64,000 bases of DNA from UHGV virus genome UHGV-0229283, one strand, 5' to 3'. Shown here piece by piece: positions 25,063-37,779 of this stretch. The translations under genes and the position numbers were made by a program. The notes under the pieces were generated by a model. It was not told where the DNA came from. It saw nothing but the letters and a program-made list of their open reading frames with translations, and made no database searches. Each line of letters starts with the position of its first letter. Within the stretch, counting starts at the first letter, position 1. The stretch is from a virus.

Positions 25063-25301
25063 TTTTACATGATATTTTAAAATTCGAAATGGTTTTCAAA
25101 ATCGTTTTTGAAACGGATTTCATCTTCCCTGCAAATTTTTAAATAAAGAGTTTTGGGAGTAGGTTATCTCAAACCTTTGTGGAAGCTATGTCGAAAAATG
25201 ATGCACAAGTGTATGATTGCTATAGGTATCTTGGCATCAAGATTGGACATTTATCTCAAATAGGCGAAAAAGATATCTCAAATTTTCAGGTAGAAAACTC
25301 T

Positions 25302-25510
25302 GGGTTCTCGATCGACTTTTCGTTTTCAAAAACGTATTTGCTCTCACTATCAAAAAATTTTTCTCTATATCAACCGGGTTCTCGATCGGTTTTTCAAAAT
25401 CGAGATCGTAAATGTTTTTTCTCTAGAAAAAATTTTTCGGCCCGGTTCTCGATCGAGATCTCAATTTCCAGATCGTATTTGTTTTCTTACGCGAAAAAAT
25501 TTTTTAGGGG
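25302..25510. repeat. three degenerate tandem repeats of about 70 bp
   Basis: Each unit begins GGTTCTCGATCG (at 25302, 25376 and 25444) and ends in an AAAAAATTTTTC tract. The region is AT-rich and ORF-poor. Confidence 0.5.
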
Positions 25511-25883
25511 TATCGCTCAGTATATCACATGAAAATCAGAAGTCAATATTTAAATTTTTTGTTGAATGAGAAGCATTCTTATTTAGTTATTTGAATGATA
25601 ATCATTCTCATTTGCTGAATGACAGGCACCCCCGGTGTTTTGTACTCCGGTTTCAATGTTCCCGCTATGTGTATAATATAGGATACACGGCCCCAGGTTG
25701 CAAGCGTCTTTACAATTCTTTACAAATAGACTTTAGGCGAGCTACCGGCGATCCACCTTCCAACCAGGTCTCCGCGCCTGGTATGTTAGCCCCGCCTTTC
25801 CGCCGTGGGGTGGCGTCTCTTCTCCTGTCTGATAAATATAACCCATGTCGGGGCCGTTTGCAAGCCCCGCGATAAAATATTTT

Positions 25884-26069
25884 TTACTCCCAGGAGTCCG
25901 CGAGCACTTCCCCATTTTCCGCTACAATTCTCACCCTGGTAAATCCTGCATTATACATTTTCAACGCGAAGGGTAAAGGCACGATCCTAACCTGGGGCGC
26001 TGCGCTTTCCGTCTCCCAGGTGGAAAGGGTGACCATTGTCTCACTCGTTGTTACTTTTGCGTTTTCCAT
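25884..26069 (-). CDS. hypothetical small protein (61 aa), block-type RBS
   Basis: Preceded on the minus strand by AAAGGTAAACGAAATG, which is identical to the Shine-Dalgarno used by plus-strand genes in the block. Confidence 0.45.
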   Translation of the reverse strand: MENAKVTTSETMVTLSTWETESAAPQVRIVPLPFALKMYNAGFTRVRIVAENGEVLADSWE

Positions 26070-35482: not shown

Positions 35483-35746
35483 ATGACAAACATGATTTAC
35501 ACTGTAAGCAAAACAAGCCTTTTACGCGCTACCCTGCTGGCTTGCCTTATTGCTTTAGTGTCTAATACGTGTTTTAACTGGCTGGCTTGCCTGGTAACGA
35601 CGGAAACAATGGCGCAAGGGTTTAACACCATGATCGACGTTTTACAATTGACGTTTTACACTCTGATTAAACTTAATCGCTTTAATCGTTTAGACCGTTA
35701 TGATCTCCCTTTCTTGATCGCTGGCCTGCTGGCTATCGCGCTGTAA
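35483..35746 (+). CDS. small membrane protein
   Basis: 87 aa with two or three hydrophobic helices. It is the last gene of the block. Confidence 0.5.
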   Translation: MTNMIYTVSKTSLLRATLLACLIALVSNTCFNWLACLVTTETMAQGFNTMIDVLQLTFYTLIKLNRFNRLDRYDLPFLIAGLLAIAL

Positions 35747-35764: not shown

Positions 35765-35800
35765 AAATAATGCCGGGCAACTCCCGGCTTTTGTGTTTTT
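35765..35800 (+). terminator. rho-independent terminator
   Basis: GCCGGGCAACTCCCGGC followed by TTTTGTGTTTTT. Confidence 0.55.
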
Positions 35801-36160
35801 ATATGTTAGGTTTTATCAATCAATAATCAAAAAGTGATAGGTGACTAAAACCTGCATAATCGAGATCTCCAGGCGGTAACCCACTAGCCAGGGTAAGAGA
35901 TAAAGCCTCTCAGAATGGCGCATATTGCGCTTAAAAGGGTATGGCCCTACCTAACAACCCCAACAATTAATAACGCATGTTATTAACTGAATAAAACATG
36001 CATTTTTAAGCATTATGTATGCATAGTGTGAGAATCACTCTCAAATGATAACTTTTATCATCTAACCTATTGTGTGAACTGGTTTTATTGAGCATAAAAA
36101 TAAAATCTTGTCAAATAAAAATCGTTCGCGTAATCGTGGGGAGTGGCGCGAGCGTAGCGA

Positions 36161-36364
36161 GCGACACAATAACACTAGGGTAACTCAAATGCGAACAAAT
36201 CGCATTCTCGTTCGCGTTATCGTGGCTCGTAGACGCTACGATCAAGGACGAAATTATTACAGTGTATTATCATTACATCCGTAATGATTAGCAATGGAAC
36301 TTTATCACATCGCCACGATAACACCGATCAACTATCGTTGATCGCCCTAGTGTTATTGTGTCGC
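36161..36364. repeat. perfect 20-bp inverted repeat pair flanking ATCGTGG/CCACGAT iterons
   Basis: GCGACACAATAACACTAGGG at 36161-36180 and its exact reverse complement at 36345-36364. Between them are CGCGTAATCGTGG, CGCGTTATCGTGG and CGCCACGATAACACC. Confidence 0.5.
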
Positions 36365-37491
36365 TGGTGATGGTAACACCCCGTTATTATTATGTGATTA
36401 AATGAAATTTAATGGTTGACAAATAGCAATAAATCACTTGCCAATGTGGGCCTATGGCCTATGGAAAGGCCTGTTTTTGAGCATGGAAGAAGTGTAAACT
36501 GTCAAGTGTTTTTATTATCGAAAATTCCTATCAATGCCTTGCGTGGCAATAAAGAAAATAGTTACTTATTGTAACTATTTCAATGCTTTAGCATTGCCGG
36601 GTATCCGGTCCGTAACGGGCTTATGTGAGAATAGTTATCATTGGGGAAATGCTCAAAGTATAGCTGTGTGTTAAACACGATTCTCTCTCCTTGTCAAGCT
36701 TTTATTTATAAATTTACAAAATATTTATATTTGCGGAATGATTCTCATTTCGAAATTGAATTCGAAATCGAAATAATAATGATTCTCATTCGTCATCTCA
36801 TTCACAAAACAACCCTAAAACATGAATAATCACACATGAAACTATCACCACAGTAACAGTCACACCATGTAATGACCTGAAGCGGCTGGCCTATGCGTCA
36901 CACTGGTAACATTGGGGCATTATTAGCTTGCTATGTGTTGTTGGTCAGTGCGTATAACGTGTTTTATGTTAAATGGTGTAATTCATATAAATATAAGCTT
37001 GTCAATAGCAAATCGTGCTCTAAGCTGGCAAACCATATGCTTGCTATATGTCACATTTGATTATTATTAGTTTCGGCAAGTAACTATCATGCCTGAAGAG
37101 GCCCCGAGGAACCGGGAACCGGATCGACCTTGCCCATGATATTTTGTAAAGATCCGTAAAAATATTTGACGCCCGGAGCTGTCCGTCTAGCACCGCAGAT
37201 GGTGAGAACAGGATATTTTTCGGCAAGTGATATTTTCGGCAGGGGGCCTGTTTTGATTTCCCCACGGGGGAAGGGGTGGTTATACGGGGAAAACAGGGGC
37301 CTGTTTACGGTATCGACATATCGGGGAGTCCCTTCAGATTGTGTGTTAATGAAATGAGTACGTAGTACAATGAGAATCATTCTCATTTACAGACAACCGG
37401 GCAGGTCCGGTGATTGTTTCGTGCAGCCTCAGCACCTGTTGCTGTGTGCAGGATAACAGGGTTGCCTATTCAGGTCAACCCCTTCGTGCGG

Positions 37492-37779
37492 TCACCACTG
37501 ATGAAATCTTTTGTGCTCCCATCTCGCCCGGCTGATGATACACCACATAGCCTGTTCATCATAGAAACCAAGCGCTTTAAGCTCTTGCTTCACATCGCTC
37601 AACTGTGCGTATAAATAAAGCTTTTTACTACCTTGACGCAGGAGGATAGCTGGTACAAGTGTCTTTGCATAGTCCAACAACACCTCTATTCTCTGCCTTT
37701 TCCCTTCAGATTTCTTGCGTGGGCAATTCCTGATGTGTGCCAGTTTTGCTGGCGCTTTTACTACTTTGTTGAAAGCCAT
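37492..37779 (-). CDS. hypothetical basic protein
   Basis: 95 aa, Lys- and Arg-rich. It is the most promoter-distal gene of the leftward block that begins near 41.9 kb. Confidence 0.5.
   Translation of the reverse strand: MAFNKVVKAPAKLAHIRNCPRKKSEGKRQRIEVLLDYAKTLVPAILLRQGSKKLYLYAQLSDVKQELKALGFYDEQAMWCIISRARWEHKRFHQW

Follow-up and report, generated by a model that had tools for sequence, protein, structure and literature searches.

A genome-end region with a homolog of a mapped terminal repeat and an adjoining, covarying fold-back in an rV5-like phage genome

In a 64,000-nt stretch of the virus genome UHGV-0229283 (hereafter the window, in whose numbering all positions are given), a gene-free gap at 35800-37490 contains, at 36674-37187, the homolog of an experimentally mapped 514-bp direct terminal repeat (DTR), and by this homology the gap is the concatemer-junction or genome-end region of the phage. 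Beside the repeat lies a nested fold-back that is found across genera and whose paired positions co-vary. We read the whole as the genome-end region of a short-DTR myophage with an adjoining cis-acting DNA fold-back that serves terminus-linked reactions, a reading to which we give a probability of about 60%, and the fold-back probably helps the phage to cut, copy or package its genome ends.

Using megablast with 1.9 kb around the gap we matched 53 phage records, all from ~145-kb myophages of the genus Mydovirus with Klebsiella, Proteus or Raoultella as hosts, and the closest of these was BIS47 at 97%. A more sensitive search extended most of the gap, at 70-76% identity, to the Seunavirus group of Salmonella, Cronobacter and Escherichia phages. 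Judged by this similarity, the source phage is a Mydovirus (rV5-like, Vequintavirinae) myophage of Klebsiella.

The gap contains the homolog of a mapped terminal repeat

The repeat and its main parts are as follows.

36674-37187: DTR, 514 bp, beginning AACACGATTCTCTCTCC and ending GGAGCTGTCCGTC, assigned by homology to the mapped repeats of relatives
36736-36791, minus strand: most conserved core of the DTR, with two Fur-box-like AATGAGAATCATT boxes (36737-36749 and 36778-36790) flanking three TCGAAAT repeats
37179-37193: right DTR boundary, CTGTCCGTC/TAGCAC (the slash marks the boundary), a candidate terminase cut or recognition site

For phage KPP-1, an approximately twofold coverage at MT438396.1:116316-116829 together with PhageTerm gave a 514-bp DTR and T7-type packaging (PMC9862379). 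This segment aligns to 37187-36674 with no gap and 96.9% identity, and the 514-bp repeat_region of phage DP, which is identical at both ends of its record, covers exactly 36674-37187. Both repeats are therefore directly comparable with that in the window, being 96-97% identical, gapless and with equal boundaries. Furthermore, two GenBank records end at one common point of the query, and the KP12 record breaks at 37187. Because 36674-37187 is the homolog of the mapped KPP-1 and DP repeats, the genome ends map to the gap, and of the earlier sequence-only reading of this DNA, which had called the position typical of a phage origin or pac site, the pac or terminus part is borne out by homology. 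The DTR sequence is present as a single copy, as in a circularised or concatemer-junction form, and is shown once because the assembly is circularly permuted. For close relatives this part is already known biology.

In 14 Mydovirus genomes the DTR measures exactly 514 bp, and in five genomes of the Seunavirus type it measures 515-516 bp, while its identity between genera falls to 30-90% with essentially no indels across these 19 genomes, and its flanks are indel-rich. So many substitutions at a fixed length imply a constraint on length or phasing. At the right boundary the 15 bp of CTGTCCGTC/TAGCAC are invariant, across genera, in 12 of the 12 genomes displayed, the flanks diverge and the sequence is unique in the window. 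The core at 36736-36791 has an identity to other genera of 0.82-0.88. A 459-bp DTR has also been mapped, in a matching gene context, in the E. coli phage Gotham (PMC7471380), and it contains similar AATGAGAAT...ATCATT boxes.

A nested fold-back adjoins the repeat

On the other side of a variable spacer from the DTR lies the fold-back, with a motif copy, a leader and an AT-rich block next to it.

36155-36370: nested fold-back with four main helices, spanning ~206 nt from one outer end of H1 to the other (36160-36365)
36160-36180 and 36345-36365: H1, the closing helix, 21 bp and perfect, arms 164 nt apart
36188-36194 and 36200-36206: Ha, an internal helix
36216-36226 and 36312-36322: H2, 11 bp, GTTATCGTGGC/GCCACGATAAC, built from motif copies S2 and S3
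36228-36240 and 36269-36288: inner hairpins, inside H2
36325-36332 and 36337-36344: Hc, a stem with two invariant GATC sites
36122-36139, plus strand: motif copy S1, TCGTTCGCGTAATCGTGG, outside the fold-back
36143-36159, plus strand: near-invariant leader GTGGCGCGAGCGTAGCG, running into AGCG, the first bases of the H1 left arm
35950-36121: conserved AT-rich block with the palindromes TTAATAAC-gcat-GTTATTAA (35964-35989), ATGCAT (twice), GAGAATCACTCTC and GATAACTTTTATC
36107: CTTGTCAA, within the AT-rich block and listed with its palindromes
36366-36673: variable spacer from fold-back to DTR, 225-308 bp among 19 genomes

The perfect inverted repeat noticed in the sequence-only reading is present, although at 21 bp rather than 20, and its flagging as a structure was sound in that it forms the closing helix of a folded element supported by covariation. 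Folding z-scores against shuffles were between -10.6 and -11.9 for either RNA strand and for DNA, and RNAalifold recovered all four helices, H1, Ha, H2 and Hc. The motif GTWATCGTGG occurs at 36130 (plus strand), 36216 (plus) and 36313 (minus), three times in 64 kb against 0.23 expected; the direct and inverted ATCGTGG iterons reported earlier are thereby present, but not all inside the inverted repeat, one of the three copies being outside. S1, the outer copy, is conserved across genera with variation only at its W position. An AT-rich stretch with ATGCAT palindromes had also been described, and the block at 35950-36121 matches it, with an identity to Seunavirus-type genomes of 0.67-0.89 compared with 0.2-0.5 for the flanking genes. 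GATC is frequent across the window, at 5.4 per kb.

The fold-back is conserved across genera and its helices co-vary

We examined conservation in an alignment of 19 genomes and counted pairs in an alignment fitted to a covariance model of the fold-back, R1. In the former, the most conserved block between genera is not the DTR but 35950-36375, within which the H1 arms are 92-96% identical and the sequence between them is variable. The possibility raised earlier that the region might be hypervariable or absent in relatives is thus not what we found, and its core is conserved above the flanking genes. R1 found exactly one copy per genome in 28 of 28 genomes and contigs, with no second copy in the window, and a metagenome scan for the fold-back gave only six further contigs.

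In the model alignment, standard pairs made up 99.7% of 1210 cells, compared with 93.1% in shuffles and 22-60% with slid partners. Double-sided changes were seen in 18 of 46 pairs against 6.3 ± 1.3 in shuffles, with none of 500 shuffles reaching 18, and one-sided (G·U-type) change was seen in no pair among 67 variant cells. The H1 arms exist in versions that differ by lineage in strict co-variation (AACACTAGGG/CCCTAGTGTT, AACACGAGGG/CCCTCGTGTT, AACACGGGAG/CTCCCGTGTT and AACACGAGAG/CTCTCGTGTT), with an additional A:T to T:A switch in the Salmonella group, and H1 is perfect in every genome. Likewise, five of the seven Ha pairs co-vary, and an internal hairpin switches between AATGCGA/TCGCATT and AATGATA/TATCATT. 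The architecture is retained in Erwinia phages, whose perfect helix has 22 bp and another sequence. The 11 bp of H2 showed no variation, and S1, outside the fold-back, is likewise an unchanging motif.

These patterns point in two directions: the free but compensated variation of H1 and Ha to a requirement for pairing, and the invariance of H2 and S1 to sequence-specific binding by a protein. Furthermore, the fold-back of the window lies ~310 bp inside one end, its distance to one DTR copy is 200-310 bp in every genome, and this lasting linkage, in all genera and across a variable spacer, suggests a terminus-linked role.

E. coli phages of the rV5 type carry a counterpart

Gotham and rV5 both have an 18-bp perfect long-range inverted repeat. 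In the Gotham record, which is the reverse complement relative to the window, the counterpart lies behind a leader, GGCGCGACGGAGTCGC, that is similar to GTGGCGCGAGCGTAGCG, ~200 bp inside the mapped DTR, and it contains several internal copies, direct and inverted, of a motif of its own, ATAGTTGCC, with a fold z-score of -12.6. About eight positions differ between the Gotham arm and that of the window, and all are compensated in the partner arm. The counterpart is present in ~120 records and is invariant in six divergent genomes with variable flanks, and some rV5-type genomes have a 33-nt insertion in its central loop. By these comparisons, the fold-back and its place beside one DTR copy are common to Mydovirus, Seunavirus, Henunavirus and Vequintavirus, and the repeated motif is genus-specific.

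A leader-like motif, TCGAGCGTAGCGAGAAC, was also seen near the other end of Gotham (Gotham record 134792-134819), in an intergenic position between a terminator and a strong sigma-70-like promoter.

The fold-back may act as DNA at the concatemer junction

Phages with a short DTR must recognise, cut and duplicate a single junction copy, which favours a cis-acting packaging or end-processing element. In T7, processing of the concatemer requires that the repeats be duplicated, and during infection a DNA hairpin that contains the terminal repeat has been observed (PMC4281155). We propose that the fold-back would act as DNA and in cis, forming when the region is single-stranded or supercoiled, and that the invariant motif copies would be binding sites for a phage protein, for example the small terminase or another end-processing or initiator protein. 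The complex of protein and fold-back would mark the concatemer junction for recognition, for cutting at CTGTCCGTC/TAGCAC and for duplication of the single DTR copy. By homology to the mapped relatives, the DTR would be present once per junction in the replicating concatemer and at both ends of the chromosome in the virion. We favour DNA over RNA because there is no wobble variation, both strands fold, no promoter is conserved and a strong terminator lies upstream; no sigma-70-like promoter reading into the fold-back was found, on inspection of the alignment too.

Several points weigh against this proposal. The DTR of the source phage is assigned by homology. The alignment behind the pair counts is fitted to the model and is thus biased toward structure. 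The varying distance between element and DTR (225-308 bp) speaks against a rigid cleavage complex. The minus strand is ~9 kcal/mol more stable in 24 of 24 copies, with slightly more G·U pairs, and a minus-strand RNA would give the same result; however, base composition confounds a comparison of the strands that uses minimum free energy and G·U counts. A T-tailed hairpin ~90 nt downstream of the fold-back (36456-36481) has a conserved T-run. Finally, older work with restriction digests and Bal31 described PVP-SE1 and PhiTE as 'terminally redundant and circularly permuted' (PMC3475682). This claim conflicts with the conserved boundaries and fixed DTR length in the Seunavirus group, and it may be that the end structure differs in some genera or that the assays missed a short DTR.

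Alternative explanations

The sequence-only reading had named the gap a candidate origin or structured RNA locus. A folded element does exist, but RNA is not favoured for it, as there is no wobble and no convincing promoter; a replication origin is now the main rival to a cis-acting DNA element at the genome ends, and a structured RNA is next.

For an origin, 35950-36120 would be the unwinding element, the GTWATCGTGG copies the iterons, and the hairpins the signals for priming or helicase loading, a layout broadly like that of AT-rich sequence, iterons and hairpins in the oriV of RSF1010-type replicons. The conserved AT-rich block does adjoin three invariant motif copies and nested inverted repeats, the motif differs by genus (GTTATCGTGGC here, ATAGTTGCC in Gotham) as it would if each genus had its own DNA-binding protein, and in rV5-type phages an analysis of skew failed to locate the origin (PMC3606486). 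We nevertheless consider an origin unlikely. The copies are two direct and one inverted rather than a tandem iteron array, inspection showed no DnaA-box-like sequence and no initiator gene is adjacent. An origin also does not need the tight linkage to the DTR that is seen in all genera, and the local maximum in GC skew merely tracks the switch in transcription direction.

Alternatively, one strand of the fold-back might be transcribed into a structured non-coding RNA (~210-330 nt) that belongs to no described family and works in trans, perhaps as a decoy or a regulator. Several helices that co-vary strongly, with loops that accept inserted hairpins (Mydo, SalP219, rV5), are typical of RNA families, the greater stability of the minus strand and the T-tailed hairpin at 36456-36481 would fit, and the related phage PhiTE expresses a functional non-coding RNA, pseudo-ToxI, elsewhere in its genome. 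Against this, A:U to G:C switches are numerous in the model helices, yet none of the pairs passes through a G·U intermediate, and H1 is perfect throughout. Neither the putative -10 sequences upstream (TAATCG, TGATCG, TTATCG, GAATCG) nor their spacing is conserved, and read-through is blocked by the strong bidirectional terminator that lies upstream. Rfam scans, which the sequence-only reading had proposed for 37100-37400, yielded nothing that reached the gathering score across the 64 kb; with permissive settings, the window, the gap and the paralogous site described below gave only chance-level matches (E 1.3 or worse). A literature search for Vequintavirinae transcriptomes found none. An RNA of this kind is, in our estimate, rather unlikely and ranks below an origin. 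We also rejected two related candidates. Reading the CTTGTCAA...ATCGTG motifs as promoters fails on the -10 and spacing, which are not conserved, and TTGTCAA is common, with 30 copies in the window; PhiTE pseudo-ToxI is not the same locus but a different kind of element, of 36-nt tandem repeats.

Third, the gap might be an iron-responsive regulatory region to which host Fur binds at the Fur-box-like palindromes. Fur-like boxes are present as had been noted: the two best matches in the window (15 of 19 positions of the 19-bp consensus) are at 25591 and 37366, and a site at 36775 matches at 14 of 19. In addition, AATGAGAATCATT has 7 matches in the 64 kb, where 0.27 would be expected, and all of them lie at three loci, and the Gotham DTR has similar boxes. 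However, AT-rich palindromes mimic such boxes, with 61 sites in the window at 13/19 or better, the boxes overlap no convincing promoter, and the palindrome at 37357-37387 was found only in the window and P8734 among 12 inspected of the 19 aligned genomes. Binding by host Fur, which would be read from consensus matches, is improbable.

Lastly, the 21-bp inverted repeats might be the ends of an inverton or of a non-autonomous mobile element, with arms kept identical by concerted evolution, given that they are perfect, flank 164 bp and change together between lineages; this we reject as very improbable, because the internal segment has the same orientation in 28 of 28 genomes and contigs and in six rV5-type genomes, each genome has a single copy, whose position is fixed in four genera, with no target-site duplication beside the arms (unlike a MITE or IS), and the internal hairpins co-vary too (Ha, 5 of 7 pairs), which homogenisation of the arms cannot explain.

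Gene content, spacer and flanks of the gap

The gap lies between convergent transcription units, as the sequence-only reading stated: plus-strand genes stop at 35746 and minus-strand genes begin at 37492, and the two small-gene clusters point toward the two genome ends. The repeats packed into 35800-37490 occur nowhere else in the 64 kb. The features outside the fold-back and DTR are these.

35772-35788, both strands: bidirectional intrinsic terminator GCCGGGcaactCCCGGC with T-runs on either side, closing the plus-strand small-gene cluster
36416-36422 and 36499-36506: TTGACAA and CTGTCAAG, respectively, within the spacer (36366-36673)
36456-36481: terminator-like hairpin with T-run, in the spacer
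37188-37491: unique sequence just inside the other genome end, GC-rich and indel-rich, with GGGGCCTGTTT twice (37243 and 37296)
37369-37387: Fur-like palindrome AATGAGAATCATTCTCATT (indel)
37396-37420: hairpin with T-rich tail, within 37188-37491

The terminator at 35772-35788 has an identity of 0.99 in Mydovirus relatives, and the record of phage Mydo annotates a terminator there on both strands.

The earlier statement that 35800-37490 has no credible open reading frame (ORF) holds up, in that the longest ORFs (55-99 aa) fail in relatives. The four longest are interrupted in close relatives by frameshifts or in-frame stops and do not survive in other genera, while a 55-aa ORF at 36893-37060, called by several annotators, shows no codon-position bias (144, 153 and 151 substitutions at the three positions). 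A Gotham CDS, F10B_0202, over a 52-bp conserved core also looks spurious. In OY978796.1, OY978784.1, OY757067.1 and OY979426.1, features for the terminase large subunit, major head protein, tail spike or tail fiber are laid over the non-coding gap, and the coordinates of these records therefore look shifted. Two further problems of annotation were seen in public records (those at issue include PQ002170.1): ~20 rV5-type genomes are labelled as Campylobacter phages (MG0656xx 'Campylobacter phage' records), and Salmonella phage R7 is filed under Demerecviridae. ARAGORN found no tRNA gene or tmRNA in the 64-kb window; relatives are reported to carry 17-26 tRNAs.

Of the smaller repeats that had been pointed out, the perfect hairpins CAATGCTTTAGCATTG (36581-36596) and TGCCTTGCGTGGCA (36535-36548) are there, sitting in poorly conserved, indel-rich spacer, and a segment at 36550-36620 is present or absent among relatives. 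The motif GGCCTGTTT does recur three times (36468, 37245 and 37298), against 0.5 expected, and nowhere else in 64 kb. The singling out of 37100-37400 for its structure was not supported: for its GC-rich part, 37188-37345, z-scores of +0.40 and -0.07 were no better than shuffles, and we discarded this part as a structured RNA.

At 37208/37209 the window is without a ~56-nt segment found in most Mydovirus relatives and bounded by the direct repeat CAGATGGTGAGAAC; it was probably lost by slippage, at a site just inside the genome end. The sequence at 37357-37455 is a truncated paralog of a module at ~25565-25836, with the right flank paralogous to ~25594-25650. That module is part of an ORF-poor region at 25280-25900, in which ~67-bp units containing GGGTTCTCGATCG (25301-25504) are followed by two Fur-box-like palindromes (25565-25612) and then by ~290 nt of GC-rich sequence. 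It has no Rfam match and a fold z-score of -0.88, and 25707-25836 has counterparts of ~84% identity in phages that are far from Vequintavirinae (phi92, phAPEC8-like, Certrevirus), with 363 records in all.

Inserts in and beside the fold-back

Hairpin-rich inserts of ~53 nt occur sporadically in unrelated lineages, in the Ha loop at 36195 (Mydo and SalP219, near-identical) and at a second point at ~36096 (Mydo and Ro1), which suggests small modules exchanged between genera. The Salmonella phages R7, SSE121 and PVP-SE1 have a ~92-nt insert directly after the H1 right arm, which is flanked by a duplicated 13-mer, GTGTTATAGTGTC, equal to the end of that arm, and holds an AAAGGGG...CCCCTTT hairpin; from its sequence this insert looks duplication-mediated or mobile.

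Two other candidates were set aside. A terminus inside the fold-back, where the SalP219 record starts, is a k-mer assembly artefact, the ends of that record overlapping by exactly 127 nt, and prophage-like contigs of 25-34 kb that share the 17-mer GTTCGCGTTATCGTGGC have no other similarity, the match being due to chance by our rough estimate.

Relation to known genome ends and recognition sites

The short DTRs of KPP-1 (514 bp), DP (514 bp) and Gotham (459 bp) likewise lie in a non-coding gap between convergent small-gene clusters. Nothing material distinguishes the repeat in the window from those of KPP-1 and DP, except that the window holds it once and its ends are placed by homology. The genome paper of rV5, the type phage of the subfamily, has a 'non-coding' box between convergent units that is left unexplained (PMC3606486), the same kind of ORF-free gap, and reported neither the termini nor the fold-back (Kropinski et al. 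2013).

The arrangement resembles the T7 junction, with a short DTR, a single junction copy that needs duplication, and cis signals with a DNA fold-back on one side (PMC4281155). The analogue in T7 is the pac/hairpin region left of the terminal repeat. However, there is no sequence similarity, and ours is a 145-kb myovirus without its own RNA polymerase; unlike the short palindrome of T7, the fold-back is a ~206-nt, multi-branched, nested inverted repeat with an invariant motif, for which a role in processing is a proposal. Chung & Hinkle (1990) reportedly also describe the T7 junction.

The R sites of lambda cosB, pacL and pacR of SPP1 and the GATC hexamers of P1 pac are terminase recognition sites made of repeated protein-binding boxes. 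As in these, short motif copies are direct and inverted near a cut site, and Hc contains two invariant GATC. The sites of lambda, SPP1 and P1 are not known to depend on long-range covarying pairing, and the fold-back differs from them in having such pairing; binding of terminase here is a candidate function. As in iteron origins such as lambda ori and plasmid oriV, an AT-rich block adjoins repeated motifs and inverted repeats, but there is no tandem array or adjacent initiator gene, no DnaA boxes were seen on inspection, and the element is tightly linked to a genome end.

Significance for rV5-like phages

Phages like rV5 (Vequintavirinae) are widely isolated and serve as candidates for therapy directed at Klebsiella, E. 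coli, Salmonella and Cronobacter. In GenBank, most records of these phages start at an arbitrary point, and several have spurious small ORFs drawn over the gap; older papers describe some members as circularly permuted. Pinning the ends to conserved boundaries improves annotation and also genome engineering, for example when choosing where DNA can safely be inserted or when designing constructs that can be packaged.

While the DTR is known in relatives, the fold-back is undescribed as far as Rfam and the searchable Vequintavirinae literature show, with no Rfam match and no published description found. It is a clear cis-acting candidate and could address how short repeats are recognised and duplicated outside the T7 paradigm. 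We put forward tentatively, and at somewhat less than even odds, that the ~170-260-nt fold-back, whether DNA cruciform, single-stranded DNA fold or RNA, may be an undescribed, subfamily-wide signal read by a genus-specific phage protein, which would direct junction recognition and DTR duplication or the initiation of replication near the ends. If true, this would provide a tractable model of end formation in large short-DTR myophages.

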